64,000 nt of DNA from the IMG/VR virus record IMGVR_UViG_3300044960_000113, positions 96,001 through 160,000 of that record; one strand, 5' to 3'. Source of the stretch: a virus. The position numbers were made by a program, and so were the translations under genes. The notes beneath the pieces are model-generated. The model did no database searches. It was not told where the DNA came from and saw only the letters and a program-made list of their open reading frames with translations. Of this stretch, positions 8,374-32,763 are shown in pieces (within the stretch, counting starts at the first letter, position 1; each line of letters begins with the position of its first letter).

Positions 8374-8650
8374 TATCCCACTTAATTTCTGGATAATCTT
8401 TTTCAGTAACCCATTCCTTTTTTAAACCAATTAAATATAAAAATTGGTTAAACATCATCTTGATTTTTGCCGCAATTCCTGTTTGTGTGAAAAAATACCA
8501 ATCAGTTTTAATATTTAACCAAAATAATTCTAATGGAGAATTACCAAGTCGTTCAAGTTCTTCAAAATCATCCAATGTTGGATGAATATCTAAATTGTCA
8601 TTGATGATTTGTTTTTTATCTGTATTCATAACATATCTGTAACAACTCAA
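8363..8650 (-). CDS. Hypothetical protein
   Basis: ORF track. Confidence 0.5.
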   Translation of the reverse strand: MSCYRYVMNTDKKQIINDNLDIHPTLDDFEELERLGNSPLELFWLNIKTDWYFFTQTGIAAKIKMMFNQFLYLIGLKKEWVTEKDYPEIKWDITK

Positions 8651-8716
8651 TAATCCATAATTATGAATATTATAACATAAATTCTATAATTTGTAAACAG
8701 TTATTTTAAATATAAA

Positions 8717-9271
8717 TTAAGCAGTTTTTTGTGCAGTTTCTGCTTTTTTTGCTGCTAATGTTGTTTTAAGCTTATTCATCTGCATTTGCAAATTATAAGA
8801 AATTTTCTTTAATTCATCGACAATTTTTTGTTTTTCCTTTTTAACGTTTTCATCTTTTGATGGTTTTTCAAGAAGTTCTAATTTTTTTAAATTATTAGTA
8901 TATAATGTCTTATATGATGCATGATTTTTAAAGAAATTTTTAAGATGTTTTTCAGCTTTATCAGTATTTGGATTTCCTTTTTCACCTAATGCGCTTAAAA
9001 AAATATAAAATTTACTATCATCACCTAAAACATCATGAGCTGCTCTTTCGTCACTATCAGATAAAGAATTTAATCCCGTAATTATTGATGCTAATTCCTC
9101 TTTATTTAATGGATTTTGGCCACTAAAAGGATTTTTATCATTTTCAACAGCATCATTAATTTTTACAATAATTGGTTGTAAGAATTTACCAATATCTTCA
9201 CATAATTTAATAGATTCAGTTAATGTTCTTATTTCTTTTATTTCTTCTAATTCATTCAATAATGAAAACAT
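8717..9271 (-). CDS. Hypothetical protein, late promoter, Glu-ending leader (MFSLLNELEE)
   Basis: ORF preceded by three overlapping TATAAATA boxes at 9304-9323. Confidence 0.6.
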   Translation of the reverse strand: MFSLLNELEEIKEIRTLTESIKLCEDIGKFLQPIIVKINDAVENDKNPFSGQNPLNKEELASIITGLNSLSDSDERAAHDVLGDDSKFYIFLSALGEKGNPNTDKAEKHLKNFFKNHASYKTLYTNNLKKLELLEKPSKDENVKKEKQKIVDELKKISYNLQMQMNKLKTTLAAKKAETAQKTA

Positions 9272-9318: not shown

Positions 9319-11460
9319 TTATAAAATATGTTTGGTTTTATTATAATTGTCTTTAATGAATTCAACAAGTTCTTCCAAACGAATAGGTCTAGATACAAGG
9401 TAACCCTGATAATTGTGACATCCTATTTCTTTAAGTTTATCTAACTGTTCATATGTTTCTACTCCTTCAGCAGTAACAGAAATATTCATACGACCAGCTA
9501 AATCTTTTACCATAGTTATAATATTTTGTGACTTATCACTTATTAATATATTATCAACAAAAGATTTATCTATTTTCAAAATATCTATTTTAAATTTTGC
9601 TAGATAGTGTAAACTTGAATAACCTGTTCCAAAATCATCTAAAGCTATTTTTATTCCACTATTTTTAATTTTTTCAATATTATTAGATGCTGAATCAATA
9701 TTATTGATAAGCATTGATTCTGTTATTTCTATACATAGTTTTGTTGGGTCAATGTTTTCTTTTATTATTTTATTTTTTAATTTTGTAACAGTTTCTTCAT
9801 TTAAATCCTTTGCAGAAAAATTCATAGAAAAATATAAATTAGATATATCTACTTTATCTTGAATTAATTTTATATCTCTTATACATCTATCTATAACAAA
9901 ATTTGTTAATTTATGAATCATTCCAGCATCTTCAACAATATGAATAAATAAATTCGGTGTTATAATAGCATTATTTCTTCTATCTTCCCATCTTAATAAG
10001 GCCTCTACACCAACAATTTTATTAGTACTTATTGAAATAATAGGTTGATAAAATAAATGAAGTTCATCATACCCTAGAGCACGTCTAATACCATTTTCTA
10101 TCTTAACTCTATATTCAACTCTAGCATCTATTTCTTCTTTATAAAATTGAAAATTATTTCTACCAGATTCTTTAGCATAATACATTGCTGCATCTGCACA
10201 TTCTAATAATTCATTTATATTTGTTGAATCATCTGGATAAACGCTTATTCCTATAGATGCTGATATATTAATTTTTTTAGTTCCACCATTTAATTCTATA
10301 GGATTTTCTAAACTATTTAGAATTTTAATTGCTATACGCTCTACATATTTAATATCACATATATTATGTATTACTATAACAAACTCATCACCACCTAATC
10401 TAATAATAAGATCATTTTCTCTTACTGTTGATTTTAATATTTTAGCTACATTTTTTAATAAAATATCTCCAGTTGAATGACCATATGTATCATTGATTAA
10501 TTTAAATCTATCTAGATCTAAATAAAATAATGCTATTTTTTTATTATTAGATCTAGCTTCAGCAAATAGATCATTTATTTTTACATTTAATAATTCCCTA
10601 TTTCCTAGTCCTGTCAAAACATCATGATGTGCTAAAAAATTTATTTTTTCTTCTTTTATTTTTAATTCTGTTATATCTGAAAATTCACCAATATAACCAA
10701 TTATTTCATTATTATCATCTTTGACTGTTGATATTATAAGATGTTCTGGGTATATTTCACCAGTCTTTTTCTTATTCCATATTTCACCTTTCCACGTACC
10801 AGTATTTAAAATTGAATTCCACATATTTTTATAAAAATCTGGATTATGAATTCCTGATGATAATATATTAGGTTTTTTACCTAAAACTTCATCTATTGAA
10901 TATCCTGTTATATTACTAAACATCTGATTTACAAATGTTATTTTAATATCGTCATCACATATCATTATTCCATGAGAACTATATTTAAGTGCTGCCAATG
11001 CATAATTAATTTGTTTTTCTTGTTTAAATACTTTTTCCGATAAAAGTTTATAATTTGTTATGTTTTTGCCTGTTCCACGGTATCCATTAAAAATACCTAA
11101 ATCATCTATAATTGGAACACCATTTAATTCAAACCAATATGTTCTATTATATTTGTCTTTAAAAGAATATATAAATCCGTGAAACGGTAATCTTTTATTT
11201 ATTTTATCTTTATATTCATTTAACACATTTATATCTTCAAATCCAAAAGATTCTATTTCACATATTTTTTTGCCTAAAAAATCCTCTTTATCAAAACCAG
11301 TAATAAGAAAAAATTTATCAGATAGATAAGTAAAAACAAGATTTTCATCTTGTTCCCAATACCAATCACAAGAAATGTCTAATAATTCTTGATTTTTTAT
11401 ATATAATTTTAGTATTTCATCTTCAACTATTTTTGAAGATGTGCATATTTCTTCTGACAT
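9319..11460 (-). CDS. PAS-PAS-GGDEF-EAL diguanylate cyclase/phosphodiesterase
   Basis: PAS (DWYWEQDENL; PNILSSGIH..GEIWNKKKTG), HDVLTGLGNR, RENDLIIRLGGDEF (RxxD I-site plus GGDEF), VEALLRW, EITES, DDFGTGYSSL, EGVET, QGY. Confidence 0.96.
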   Translation of the reverse strand: MSEEICTSSKIVEDEILKLYIKNQELLDISCDWYWEQDENLVFTYLSDKFFLITGFDKEDFLGKKICEIESFGFEDINVLNEYKDKINKRLPFHGFIYSFKDKYNRTYWFELNGVPIIDDLGIFNGYRGTGKNITNYKLLSEKVFKQEKQINYALAALKYSSHGIMICDDDIKITFVNQMFSNITGYSIDEVLGKKPNILSSGIHNPDFYKNMWNSILNTGTWKGEIWNKKKTGEIYPEHLIISTVKDDNNEIIGYIGEFSDITELKIKEEKINFLAHHDVLTGLGNRELLNVKINDLFAEARSNNKKIALFYLDLDRFKLINDTYGHSTGDILLKNVAKILKSTVRENDLIIRLGGDEFVIVIHNICDIKYVERIAIKILNSLENPIELNGGTKKINISASIGISVYPDDSTNINELLECADAAMYYAKESGRNNFQFYKEEIDARVEYRVKIENGIRRALGYDELHLFYQPIISISTNKIVGVEALLRWEDRRNNAIITPNLFIHIVEDAGMIHKLTNFVIDRCIRDIKLIQDKVDISNLYFSMNFSAKDLNEETVTKLKNKIIKENIDPTKLCIEITESMLINNIDSASNNIEKIKNSGIKIALDDFGTGYSSLHYLAKFKIDILKIDKSFVDNILISDKSQNIITMVKDLAGRMNISVTAEGVETYEQLDKLKEIGCHNYQGYLVSRPIRLEELVEFIKDNYNKTKHIL

Positions 11461-11920: not shown

Positions 11921-12214
11921 TTATCTTTTCCTTTTTTTACTTCTTTCATTTGTGTCTTTTGAAATATCAAAAAAATCTATACTACGTTTGGAAACCCACT
12001 TAATAAATTTTTCTATTTCCGGGTGTTCTCTTAATCTTTCCCATGTATGATAATAATTTAACAATTCGCGTTCTGTAAATGTTGAATGAATTTTTTGGTG
12101 ACATATTTTATGGATTTTTTCAGCATCTTTACCCTTAAATGTTTTTGGGATCAAATGGTGTTGATCAATATTTATTTCACCCAACTCACGATGACATAAT
12201 GGACATTTATTCAT
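11921..12214 (-). CDS. Small HNH nuclease
   Basis: CPLC..HHLIPK..ICHQKIH. Confidence 0.8.
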   Translation of the reverse strand: MNKCPLCHRELGEINIDQHHLIPKTFKGKDAEKIHKICHQKIHSTFTERELLNYYHTWERLREHPEIEKFIKWVSKRSIDFFDISKDTNERSKKRKR

Positions 12215-12234: not shown

Positions 12235-12942
12235 TTAATTGAATTCAGTTCCACCTTTACGTGTTAAATAATCTTCACTAACACTCTTAAGAATAACTCT
12301 TCCTAATTGCGGGTGATTTCTTTCATTTTTAGGTTTAACAACAACACCTTCACGAATATGTTTAGCTTTTCCGGATACTGTTTCTTTTCCAACAGTATAT
12401 TTCATAACAGTATCTTTTGAATATGGGCCAACAAATAATATTGGAACCATTTCTAATTTTAATTTATCTTTCATTTCTGTTAATGTTTCAAAATCAGTAA
12501 ATTTAATATTTTGTCTATATCCCCTAGCAATATCAAAAATTCTAAATGAAATTTTTTCTCCATATGTCAAATCTTGGACTCCCGGACCATATATTTCACC
12601 CAATATATGAATAGGTTCTTCAAGTTCCACGTTTTTAAACGTGTTTAATACAATATCAATTATTCCCATACTTCTCAACGTTCTAATATAAATATTATCC
12701 TTGTTTTTTTCATTATTTTTAAAACACAAACCTTTACTTCCGAGACCTTTGCTATATACAAGGATACGGCCATCAATCATATCATCAGTTCCATCTTTTT
12801 CAGGAACAAAAGTAATACCACAAAACGAATTATGGACTAATATATTATTAGCAAAAAAATTATTAACATTATTAACTTCTATATCATAACGCATTGAAGT
12901 ATTTTCAATTTTTTTGATAGATTTAATTTTAACCGTTTTCAT
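12235..12942 (-). CDS. Split-intein C part (38 aa) fused to RNA ligase C-extein
   Basis: MKTVKIKSIKK..YDIEV..NFFANNILVHN|S; extein has ILGEIYGPGVQ, FDI, REGVVVKP, ILKSVSEDYL (RNA ligase motifs). Confidence 0.92.
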   Translation of the reverse strand: MKTVKIKSIKKIENTSMRYDIEVNNVNNFFANNILVHNSFCGITFVPEKDGTDDMIDGRILVYSKGLGSKGLCFKNNEKNKDNIYIRTLRSMGIIDIVLNTFKNVELEEPIHILGEIYGPGVQDLTYGEKISFRIFDIARGYRQNIKFTDFETLTEMKDKLKLEMVPILFVGPYSKDTVMKYTVGKETVSGKAKHIREGVVVKPKNERNHPQLGRVILKSVSEDYLTRKGGTEFN

Positions 12943-12950
12943 TTTATTTC

Positions 12951-13100
12951 CTATAATAAAAAATTAATAATTCTATTTTTAACATTATCAAAATTCTTTC
13001 TTATGTCATTTTCCCATAGTACTGAAACATTATATCCTTGTTGTTCTGCTAAATTAATTTTTATTTTATCTCTATTCCAAATGTCTTTAACTTTCGCATT
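12951..13100 (-). pseudogene. C-terminal remnant of a Vsr-like endonuclease gene between the split-intein halves
   Basis: Manual translation NAKVKDIWNRDKIKINLAEQQGYNVSVLWENDIRKNFDNVKNRIINFLL*; RD..K...A...GY.V..LWE.D resembles Vsr/DUF559-type C-termini; in frame just after the IntN stop. Confidence 0.65.
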
Positions 13101-13919
13101 TTAAGAATATAATAAAAATTCATCATTTTCTGTCAAGAATTTAACTTCTCTATAACAATTTAATTTAGGTAACCAAACTAAATGATTTTCTGTTAATTTA
13201 ATAATCTGTCCATCTTCAGTTTCAATTTCATACCATTGTTTATCATTTGGGAATATAGAATGTCCATTAATTTTTTCATAAACAACTTCATTAGTAGTTA
13301 TATCAAAAGCTTTTACGTGACAAAATATCTTTTTATCGCAAACCTGCCCAATTTTAATAGGACCAAATTCTAATGTATCAATTATTGTATCATAATCAGC
13401 ACAGCCATGAATTTTTTCTGTAACTACAACATCTTCACCATCTTCAAAAACATCTGGCCACGCTTTAATATTTTCAATGTCATAATTTACTGTCAAACGC
13501 GTACCTGCATTAAATACTTCTCCTGCCATATGAACAGGAATTGGCGGTTCATACTTAACAATGCCCAATTCCTCAGCAACATCAACTCCTTCTACATGTA
13601 AATCTGAATTATTCAATGCACTCACTGGAATAACAATACCAAGTGACAACTCACCCCTAAGCTTTATTGCTTTAACTCTATCACCTTTTGATCCAGCAAG
13701 CATTCCTTTATTTTCTTTTTCATTCCAAAATCCATATTTTTTCAAAATCCATTCTGGAACGATAGCAGCTTCTGGAATATATACAACAAGATCACCAGTT
13801 TTATATTGACCTTTTTTTACCACACAATGATAATCATCAACTTTAGCTAATTCTAAAGCATCAGCATTTGGATGTGGCAATATTTCTATTTTACGTACTT
13901 TAACAGAAAAAGTACTCAT
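13101..13919 (-). CDS. RNA ligase (DRB0094/Rnl2-like) N-extein fused to split-intein N part (100 aa)
   Basis: HPNADALE, VVYIPE, RVKAIKLRG, motif I TEKIHG|CADYDT.., intein block B KLTENH. Confidence 0.92.
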   Translation of the reverse strand: MSTFSVKVRKIEILPHPNADALELAKVDDYHCVVKKGQYKTGDLVVYIPEAAIVPEWILKKYGFWNEKENKGMLAGSKGDRVKAIKLRGELSLGIVIPVSALNNSDLHVEGVDVAEELGIVKYEPPIPVHMAGEVFNAGTRLTVNYDIENIKAWPDVFEDGEDVVVTEKIHGCADYDTIIDTLEFGPIKIGQVCDKKIFCHVKAFDITTNEVVYEKINGHSIFPNDKQWYEIETEDGQIIKLTENHLVWLPKLNCYREVKFLTENDEFLLYS

Positions 13920-29591: not shown

Positions 29592-31310
29592 TTATCCACA
29601 TTTACTAGAACCACATTGCATACATTTATGACATCCTTCTTGATATACAACCTTTTCACTTCCACATTCTGTACATTTTGCACCTTCAACTATTTCACCA
29701 TCTTTAATAAATGATGCTAGAAATTTTTTAATCTGGAAAATAAAACTTCCAACATAAACATCTTTAATGCTATCAAGTGTTGCAACAATATTTTTGATTA
29801 ATACTCCATGTCTAAGATTTAAAGAAATCATTCTAGCAATTTTAGAAGCATTATCATTTGATTTAATTTTTTCTAACACTTTATCTATATGCTCTTGTTT
29901 AATATTTTTTCTTTTTGCTAATTCTGTCAATTTATCAATAGCATCTAATGTTATAACATTTTTTTCATGATGATTTGTATGAACAAATAATGCAAATGGT
30001 CTAGTGCGTGTTTCATTCCAAACAACAGTTAGATACCATTTTCTTCCTTCAGCACGTAAAGTTTTCATTGATGCTTCTGCAGTTTCTGGAAGAATTACAT
30101 CATCTAAAATAATTTCCTCATCATAACCATTTTTATCTGTTTCTTTTGAAGATAGTACAGCTGTCATTGTACCTGTTCTGTATGTTGTTACACCTTTAAC
30201 ATATCCAGATTTATAAACATCTAAATAAACATTTTTAAAATCATCAAATGGATATTCATGTGGAACATTGACAGTTTTTGACATAGCACTGTCAACCCAT
30301 CTTGCAAATCCAACTAAATCATTAACATGATCTTCAACAGTCAATCCATTCAATGCAGTAACAGCCCATGGTGCTTTTGGATTCCATTCATTTTTTTCTT
30401 TTAAATATCTAACACCATAATCAGAACACGTAACCTCTTTAGTCAATCCTCTATTTTTATCGATTTTATAAACTATACCATTATGTTTTCCTTTAAGAAT
30501 TTCTTCATCACCTTCTTTTGTGAATTTAAAAATTTTTGTTTCATGCCACTCACCATCGTACCATTTAGGTGTTTCTTCAATCATATCTTCTGGAATAGAT
30601 GGAACAATAACCGTTCTTATATATTCTGGCATAAATATTGGTTCTAATCCACTAGATACAACATTTGCTAATATAGAAGTATTTCCTGTTGGTTGTATCG
30701 ATAATAATGAACTATTCCTAATTCCAACAGTTTTTAATTTTTCCATATATGATTTTGATAGACCTAATGATTGAATAAATGGATTTTCAGAATGTTTTTG
30801 TGGGTCACATAATTTAAACATTCCTTTTTCTTCTGCTAAATCAATAGATGACATATATGCACTTCTAGCTATGGTAGACATAACCTTTTCACGCAATTCA
30901 TGTGATTTATCAGAACCAAATTTTATTTTCAACATAAATAATGATGATGCCCAACCAAGAATACCAATACCAATGCGACGCTTATTTTTCATTGAATATT
31001 CATATTCAGGAAGTGGTGCATTAGATAAAGTATTAACATTATCTAAGAAACGAACAAGATAACCTGTATATTTTGCTATTTTTTTATAATCAAAATCTGT
31101 ACAATCTTCATTAATAAATTGAGTTAAATTTAATGAAGATAAACAACAAATACCACCTGGAGCCAACATTTGTTCACCACAATTATGAACTAAAATTCCA
31201 TTTGCAAAAAAATTATGATTTTTGGTAGTAGTTAAATCAAAAACATCTTGATTTTCAGTTATTTTTATAGATTTAATTTTTAATTTGCGGAGGTTGTTGT
31301 TTGTTTCCAT
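29592..31310 (-). CDS. nrdJ: Split-intein C part (43 aa) plus C-half of class II (NrdJ-like) ribonucleotide reductase
   Basis: KIKSIK..VFDL..HNFFANGILVHN|CGEQ; CCLSSLNL, RRIGIG, SIQPTGNTS, SSGLEP, SAMSKTVN, KGVTTYR, C-terminal Cys cluster. Confidence 0.92.
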   Translation of the reverse strand: METNNNLRKLKIKSIKITENQDVFDLTTTKNHNFFANGILVHNCGEQMLAPGGICCLSSLNLTQFINEDCTDFDYKKIAKYTGYLVRFLDNVNTLSNAPLPEYEYSMKNKRRIGIGILGWASSLFMLKIKFGSDKSHELREKVMSTIARSAYMSSIDLAEEKGMFKLCDPQKHSENPFIQSLGLSKSYMEKLKTVGIRNSSLLSIQPTGNTSILANVVSSGLEPIFMPEYIRTVIVPSIPEDMIEETPKWYDGEWHETKIFKFTKEGDEEILKGKHNGIVYKIDKNRGLTKEVTCSDYGVRYLKEKNEWNPKAPWAVTALNGLTVEDHVNDLVGFARWVDSAMSKTVNVPHEYPFDDFKNVYLDVYKSGYVKGVTTYRTGTMTAVLSSKETDKNGYDEEIILDDVILPETAEASMKTLRAEGRKWYLTVVWNETRTRPFALFVHTNHHEKNVITLDAIDKLTELAKRKNIKQEHIDKVLEKIKSNDNASKIARMISLNLRHGVLIKNIVATLDSIKDVYVGSFIFQIKKFLASFIKDGEIVEGAKCTECGSEKVVYQEGCHKCMQCGSSKCG

Positions 31311-31425: not shown

Positions 31426-32763
31426 TTAAATACCTATTAAAATATCGTCTGTTGTTAAGTCAGATGCATTAACATACCCACGATTTTCAGTATAGACTTT
31501 ATGATCTGGTGTTAATTTAATGACTGTAGAATCTTCTAATTCTAATTCGATAACATTAGCATTATTACGTGTTTTGTCGACAAAAGTTATATCTTCAAAT
31601 TCTGTATTTTGTGTGTCAATATTCATTGTTAATACTTTGAAGCTTTCACCAGATTTAAACCTTTTGGCCAACTCAAAAAATGATATTTCACCCTTATCTG
31701 TCGTGACTAAAGTATCACCAGTTAAACATGGATTTGTCGAATAAATTGTTTCAGCATAATTTAATGGATTAAAATAATTTGCACGATCTAAAAATAAAAC
31801 ACCTGGCTCTGCGCGATTATATGTTGATTCCATAATTAAATTCCATAGCCAAGTTGCTGATACTGTTTGATACACTATTGTTGGATACCCAGCTGATTCC
31901 CATTGCTTAATGTCACCTTTCCATTCTTTTTTATATTTTGGATGACTTGTGTCTGGGAAACGTAAATTCCATTTATCAATTTCTTCTTTTTCTTTAATTA
32001 AAATTTGTTTATTTTCATCATCATCTGATAATGAATCAATTTGTTTTTGTAATTCTAATGCTTTTATAACCTTTGACATAAATTCATCTGAACAATTTAC
32101 TGACATATTAAATTTTGTCAATCTTCCTGATGATTGTTTTGCTGTAATAAATTCTATAATATCAGGGTGCCAAACATCTAATACTGCCATCATCGCGCCC
32201 TTTCTAATTTTACCTTTCGCTTTTACATGTGTTGATTTTTTACCTGAACCAGAAGTAATAATATCAGATGATTTATCAAATAATTCCATATATTTTACAG
32301 CACCTGGCGTTTCAACGCCAATCCCATAAATAAAAGCACCACGCGGTCTTATCCAACTAAAATTTTCTCCCCATCCACCCTCACTTTTGAGTGTTTGTGC
32401 TTGATCATTTAATGTTTTAATAATATTACTTAATGAGTCTATATCATTATTTGCTCTAGGTGCAACAAAGCAATTAATAAATGTTGTACCTTTCCATTCT
32501 GTCCCAGCATTTGCATAAATTCTACCACCAGCAGTAACTTTAAATTCACTAAGCATATCATAAAATTTTTCGGTCCACTCGATACGCTTTTCTTCAGTTT
32601 CTTCTGCTGATGCTATTGTTTTTGCGACTCTAAAAAGAGTATCATCTATTGTTTTATCATTATAATCTTTGTATGTTGTTTGCCATATTTCTTCTGAAAA
32701 TTGATCTTGAAATTTTGTTGAATATTTTTTTTGAAGTTTTTGTTTAAGTGTATTGAAATCCAT
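31426..32763 (-). CDS. nrdJ: N-half of class II (NrdJ-like) ribonucleotide reductase plus split-intein N part (100 aa)
   Basis: AGGRI, INCFV, GGWGENFS.IRP, RKGAMM, HPDI, FNMSV, EPGVLF, STNP|CLTGDT, block B KLTPDH. Confidence 0.92.
   Translation of the reverse strand: MDFNTLKQKLQKKYSTKFQDQFSEEIWQTTYKDYNDKTIDDTLFRVAKTIASAEETEEKRIEWTEKFYDMLSEFKVTAGGRIYANAGTEWKGTTFINCFVAPRANNDIDSLSNIIKTLNDQAQTLKSEGGWGENFSWIRPRGAFIYGIGVETPGAVKYMELFDKSSDIITSGSGKKSTHVKAKGKIRKGAMMAVLDVWHPDIIEFITAKQSSGRLTKFNMSVNCSDEFMSKVIKALELQKQIDSLSDDDENKQILIKEKEEIDKWNLRFPDTSHPKYKKEWKGDIKQWESAGYPTIVYQTVSATWLWNLIMESTYNRAEPGVLFLDRANYFNPLNYAETIYSTNPCLTGDTLVTTDKGEISFFELAKRFKSGESFKVLTMNIDTQNTEFEDITFVDKTRNNANVIELELEDSTVIKLTPDHKVYTENRGYVNASDLTTDDILIGI

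Follow-up and report, generated by a model that had tools for sequence, protein, structure and literature searches.

How might a phage obtain an RNA ligase from a gene that is broken at its active-site motif? The question is raised by two adjacent genes in the window, by which we mean the whole 64,000-nucleotide stretch of viral DNA analysed here (positions 96,001 to 160,000 of IMG/VR record IMGVR_UViG_3300044960_000113). A preliminary description, made from the letters and their open reading frames, had read the pair as an RNA ligase fractured by a naturally split intein. Here we ask whether both identifications hold, how the break arose and what the two gene products would do.

Two genes encoding one Rnl5-type ligase

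The record that carries the split ligase is a 184,280-bp metagenomic contig estimated to be 52% complete; the window is AT-rich (22–36% GC) and holds 32 tRNA genes and a tmRNA gene. Both ligase genes lie on the minus strand. The N-precursor gene (13101–13919, −; 272 aa), which has an AGGAG ribosome-binding site upstream, encodes the ligase N-extein (aa 1–172; 13404–13919, −), made up of an OB-like N module and the first part of the nucleotidyltransferase domain and closed by motif I, K169-I-H-G172 (13404–13415, −). It is followed by IntN (aa 173–272, 100 aa; 13104–13403, −), with Cys1 and block B T243-E-N-H246. The C-precursor gene (12235–12942, −; 235 aa), whose ATG has an AGGA ribosome-binding site 6 nt ahead of it (12949–12952, −), encodes IntC (aa 1–38; 12829–12942, −), with block F D20 and block G H37-N38, and then the C-extein (aa 39–235; 12238–12828, −), which opens with the +1 Ser and holds motifs Ia, III, IIIa, IV and V. 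Each half is a gene of its own, equipped with a start, a stop and a ribosome-binding site and free of frameshifts; the two open reading frames are 158 bp apart and all three frames of the gap contain stops. The preliminary description had the N gene run through TEKIHG into a Cys and a 100-aa IntN, and the next gene open with a 38-aa IntC ending in VHN before a Ser. Both readings proved exact: with a slash at each intein boundary, the sequences are VVVTEKIHG/CADYDT, with the stop 100 residues after the Cys (counting the Cys), and NNILVHN/SFCGITF. No terminator-like site was found between the two genes. A sigma-70 promoter scan returned 29 sites against 17 expected, which is uninformative in DNA of 26–28% GC, and one match from that scan, TTGACA-16-TATTAT at 13136–13109, is left without interpretation. 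Elsewhere in the window, positions 9319–11460 (−) encode a 713-aa PAS-GGDEF-EAL protein.

To identify the host enzyme we compared both halves with protein family models. The N-half matched positions 7–171 of the 341-position NCBIfam equivalog TIGR02306 (RNA_lig_DRB0094; 169.1 bits, cut-off 151.15, E 1e-49) and the C-half matched positions 180–341 (107.4 bits, E 7e-31), so that the halves abut in the ligase model, a few positions apart. PF21189 (PHA02142 OB module) covered aa 7–99 of the N-half (E 9e-18), PF09414 matched the C-half (E 5e-16), and a PHROGs search gave the same domain picture for both halves. The best solved structure was the Naegleria gruberi Rnl5 ligase NgrRnl (5COT and related entries, E 7e-18). 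The protein ends where the TIGR02306 model ends and, like DraRnl of D. radiodurans and NgrRnl, combines an OB-like N module with a nucleotidyltransferase domain and has no C-terminal domain (PMC1807946, PMC4408790, PMC7261155); unlike these enzymes, it is encoded in two pieces. By its sequence, the split gene product is an Rnl5-type (DraRnl/NgrRnl-like) RNA ligase. As the intein_Nterm and intein_Cterm models also scored above their cut-offs (see below), the earlier claim of an RNA ligase broken by a split intein stands, and the profile matches confirm the two-gene split-intein arrangement far beyond chance.

The alignment with NgrRnl places the break precisely. The VTVKLDGS segment of NgrRnl aligns with VTEKIHGC of the window, K169 standing opposite Lys170, which in NgrRnl is the adenylylated nucleophile of motif I, with Asp172 binding the catalytic metal (PMC7261155). 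The intein therefore sits three residues past the catalytic lysine, right behind the motif I glycine, in keeping with the earlier placement of the break at active-site motif I. Its +1 nucleophile is at the same time the native residue that follows this glycine (Ser in NgrRnl). Motif I of the window reads KxHG, as against KxDG in NgrRnl, with His in place of Asp172, and intact phage homologues share this His. The 35 aligned split alleles all keep K169, H171 and G172. In the alignment of 16 true C-halves, S64-K65-G66, E116, F136-D137, E198-G199 and K219 are invariant, and by analogy with NgrRnl (PMC7261155) we read them as motifs Ia (SKG), III (E116), IIIa (F136-D137), IV (E198-G) and V (K219). 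The catalytic Lys/Glu/Glu/Lys set (K169, E116, E198 and K219) is thus present in the window, every member being invariant in the 35 N-halves or the 16 C-halves.

The split gene is the sole TIGR02306 ligase in the 184,280-bp record, and a search of the record for RtcB found none. Outside the window, the record has two more RNA-ligase-like genes of the PF09414 type, at G000:C1:168237–168755 (open frame 421 aa) and 8472–8846 (787 aa). The phage therefore has several ligase paralogues, so that its RNA ligation overall need not depend on the ligase splice and selection on the split copy could be relaxed.

Intein halves and the predicted splice product

IntN matched TIGR01445 (intein_Nterm; 28.0 bits, cut-off 24.5) from residue 173 onwards, as well as DnaE inteins in the PDB (E 3e-6), and IntC matched TIGR01443 (intein_Cterm; 20.0 bits, cut-off 15.6) and PF14890. 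Across 35 N-halves that are 41–72% identical to the query, C173 (intein residue 1) and the block B TxxH residues T243 and H246 are invariant; the 16 true IntC alleles all have D20 in block F as well as H37 and N38, and the +1 residue is Ser or Thr throughout (Ser39 after H37-N38 in the window). Every catalytic residue of both intein and ligase is present in the window allele, which is fully canonical. By Cys1, TxxH, His-Asn, a +1 nucleophile and precise in-frame insertion, the pair can be assigned from its sequence to the class 1 (HINT) inteins. In these features (Cys1, TxxH and HN), and in being split at the endonuclease insertion point, it resembles the NrdJ-1 and DnaE (Npu/Ssp) split inteins (8UBS, 4LX3, 1ZD7), and its IntC shares a YDI...HNFFAN.ILVH pattern with that of NrdJ-1 (8UBS), a match of little weight by itself (E 0.14). 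Unlike the NrdJ-1 and DnaE inteins, it has another host and insertion site and Ser at +1, and its sequence identity to them is low.

Structure modelling predicted that IntN and IntC associate. The modelled complex scored 0.72, against 0.00 for the best control, and its runs had at least 91% of contacts in common with a partner pLDDT of at least 70; of 80 solved complexes 58 attained this mark, as against 2 of 110 mismatched pairs. Because split-intein complexes have already been solved, the good result may stem from resemblance to those structures and so not be independent evidence. The net charges of the two peptides are −8 (IntN) and +3 (IntC).

The following course of events would account for these features. 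The two precursors (31 kDa and 27 kDa) would be translated separately, and the acidic IntN and basic IntC would come together as a HINT fold. Class 1 splicing would then begin with an N-S acyl shift at Cys173; the +1 Ser would attack, Asn38 would cyclise and an O-N shift would follow, so that Gly172 is joined to Ser in a 369-residue ligase (~42 kDa) that reads TEKIHG-SFCGITF at the junction and yields the junction tryptic peptide IHGSFCGITFVPEK. Only the spliced protein would have a contiguous nucleotidyltransferase active site. The preliminary description had predicted that splicing restores KIHG-SFCG, and this sequence agrees with that of an uninterrupted homologue: the joined exteins read KIHG-SFCGIT, letter for letter as in the intact protein P0014 (KIHGSFCGIT). 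We infer both the splicing and the ligase activity of the pair from sequence, which points to a real, probably functional trans-splicing pair. By analogy with its family, the spliced ligase would be likely to seal 3′-OH/5′-PO4 nicks in RNA-containing duplexes during infection.

Another gene in the window is fractured as well. A ribonucleotide reductase of class II (NrdJ-type, TSCPD-bearing) is encoded on the minus strand as an N-half (31426–32763) and a C-half (29592–31310), split by an NrdJ-1-like intein with the boundaries STNP/CLTGDTLV and FFANGILVHN/CGEQ. The 115-bp gap between these halves contains no endonuclease open reading frame. The reductase IntC is strikingly similar to that of the ligase, which raises the question of cross-reactivity between the two.

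An endonuclease fossil and the spread of the split among relatives

Immediately behind the IntN stop and in frame with it, 49 open codons without a start codon fill most of the gap (12954–13100, −). When a profile built from six inter-half endonucleases of related loci was run against 1584 six-frame stop-to-stop pieces of the window, the gap piece was the sole match (E 3e-11; next best 0.21). Pairwise blastp against the relatives' endonucleases gave 2e-8 (locus L014) and 2e-7, and comparison with PF04480 gave E 0.007. These significant matches identify the gap piece as a remnant of the Vsr-like (EDxHD-type) homing endonuclease, which related phages still have in intact form between their two ligase halves. 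Only the final W..D...GY.V..WE.D block is retained; the catalytic E/D/H block of the relatives (IIEV.GD.WH) is absent from these last 49 residues, so no nuclease can be made there. The fossil marks the locus as a fractured gene of the kind described by Dassa et al. in 2009 in which the endonuclease has decayed. With the endonuclease lost the element can no longer home, and the ligase is nonetheless still in two genes.

Six distinct IMG/VR loci (L014, L015/16, L018/19, L021/23, L078 and L080/81) have a same-strand open reading frame between the ligase halves, of 267–331 aa in five of them (L014, L015, L021, L078 and L080) and 99 aa in L018. These proteins comprise a zinc finger, DUF7487 and a C-terminal DUF559/MTES_1575/Vsr-type nuclease, and match PHROG 3339 'homing endonuclease'. 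In the PDB they matched best the catalytic domain of I-Bth0305I (3R3P, E 0.002) and then Vsr (E 0.03), and they share IIEV.GD.WH and GY.VL..WE.D blocks with I-Bth0305I/Vsr-like EDxHD endonucleases (PMC3239194), a likeness for which the PDB E-values are weak (0.002–0.04). One family thus displays a series of endonuclease decay, from 267–331 aa through 99 aa to a 49-codon fossil. A further small frame, of 97 aa (11921–12214, −), follows the ligase C-half downstream at a distance of 20 bp, and its CxxC ... HH ... CHxxIH spacing is reminiscent of a small HNH/zinc-finger nuclease; when it was examined as a possible HNH endonuclease, it had no significant match in Pfam or PHROGs.

We then asked how widely the split occurs. 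Database protein searches with the ligase halves as queries retrieved 373 proteins. Many N-half relatives are 264–326 aa long and cover 96–100% of the N-half, C-half relatives include partners of 228–258 aa, and for several such pairs the lengths of the longest contigs agree, which suggests shared contigs. The closest relatives, P0002 and P0122, are 70% and 58% identical, and the nearest relatives with DNA available have ~50% protein identity. A blastn search of the locus against a phage collection gave no match, and a scan of viral contigs with the single N-half returned intein-free homologues only, an alignment-based scan being needed to reveal split loci. Among the 373 proteins, at least 63 are N-half alleles split at the same motif I site; the arrangement is not rare. 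IntN is 98–105 residues long in 60 of the 63, and the two-gene form is retained across alleles down to 41% identity.

The preliminary description had proposed a search for uninterrupted homologues and had named degenerate intein halves among homologues as grounds for refutation. We found 269 intein-free homologues, P0014 with the predicted junction among them, and at their position corresponding to +1 the residue is Thr in 233 and Ser in 29. The block B TxxH is kept in 60 of the 63 split alleles, the catalytic residues being invariant in the aligned alleles; the other three have Asp in place of the His. These three (P0236, P0238 and P0243), to which the window's allele does not belong, read TGED and are either decaying or splicing without the usual histidine, so that not every member of the family need splice canonically.

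Other relatives vary the theme. In P0297 (491 aa) the identical motif I site is occupied by a mini-intein that is contiguous, in P0241 (762 aa) a LAGLIDADG-containing intein interrupts the ligase at another site (LGEVFG/C...HN/SGIQDL), and in P0321 a split N-half is preceded by a fused HNH domain. One intein-free ligase shares 81% identity with the N-extein of the window. On a FastTree phylogeny of 171 N-exteins, intein presence and absence required at least 29 changes (shuffled mean 51), at least 10 of them forced by well-supported branches; as the tree is quick and unrooted, gains and losses are inseparable in these counts. The distribution fits repeated homing and loss of the ligase intein.

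Origin, competing readings and significance

The layout of fractured phage genes with split inteins, cited as known in the preliminary description, was indeed described in 2009 by Dassa, London, Stoddard, Schueler-Furman & Pietrokovski (gp41-1 to gp41-8, NrdJ-1, NrdA, IMPDH-1, DnaE, DNA ligase and terminase; PMC2677866), who reported eight host types and one gp41 locus without an endonuclease. The ligase locus shares with these genes an IntN of ~100 aa, an IntC of ~35–40 aa and complementary charges. It differs in that its host, an Rnl5 RNA ligase, falls outside their eight types, and in that its endonuclease is a 49-codon fossil, in contrast to the fractured genes with a free-standing endonuclease. 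What they list as a fractured 'DNA ligase' resembles that of Felix O1 (PMC2677866); we considered and rejected it as an Rnl5 family member, the Felix O1 protein being PF01068/PF14743 and the Felix O1 genome having no TIGR02306 match. Where surveys report inteins in RNA ligases, the enzymes are of the RtcB type only, and a jumbo-phage review names Rnl1, Rnl2 and RtcB, none with an intein. Our literature search found no published report of inteins in ATP-dependent or Rnl5 RNA ligases, in line with the preliminary description, which knew of none in this family, and the Rnl5 ligase seems to be a new host for a split-intein arrangement that is itself already known.

The best explanation of the locus, and in our view a likely one, is that an Rnl5 ligase gene was invaded at motif I and fractured, that the endonuclease has since been deleted and that the halves trans-splice. 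A mobile cassette, consisting of an intein and a free-standing Vsr-like homing endonuclease, would have entered the gene at motif I and produced the fractured form; later deletion would have reduced the endonuclease to its 49-codon fossil, leaving the ligase in two genes and the element immobile. The decayed endonuclease would also suit a dead relic, in which splicing has ceased and the ligase, on its way to loss, survives as a pseudogene in two pieces whose function is covered by paralogues; the two other PF09414 genes and the alleles elsewhere that lack the block B His point the same way. Against such a relic stand two open reading frames free of frameshifts and stops, two intact ribosome-binding sites, the retention of all catalytic residues of intein and ligase, and the persistence of the two-gene form down to 41% identity, and we regard it as unlikely.

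Were the intein halves a mere dimerisation module, the ligase would work as a heterodimer without splicing. The tight association predicted for IntN and IntC would allow this; however, a 138-residue HINT domain would then be stuck three residues from the adenylylated lysine, and there would be no reason for Cys1, the Asn and the +1 nucleophile to stay invariant, which makes non-covalent complementation very improbable. An assembly or sequencing artefact that broke a contiguous intein has in its favour that the record is a metagenomic contig, 52% complete, but it is scarcely credible given a 158-bp gap with stops in all three frames, a fossil gene, a ribosome-binding site and an ATG, and the recurrence of the same architecture in many independent assemblies.

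A bolder proposal goes further. The Rnl5 motif-I inteins may make up a large family, undescribed so far and naturally diversified, with two or more sequence clades and Ser or Thr at +1; in this phage the endonuclease-free split may have been kept because trans-splicing is useful, as a post-translational gate that controls when the ligase becomes active. We consider this decidedly unlikely; if it were true, the ligase pair would have to stay orthogonal to the NrdJ split intein of the same phage despite their strikingly alike IntC peptides.

The dozens of natural split-intein pairs with Ser or Thr at +1 could be screened as protein-engineering tools. The locus adds an RNA-repair enzyme to the phage genes that need reassembly at the protein level, and for phage biology it would represent the ordinary footprint of a selfish element and not a new mechanism.
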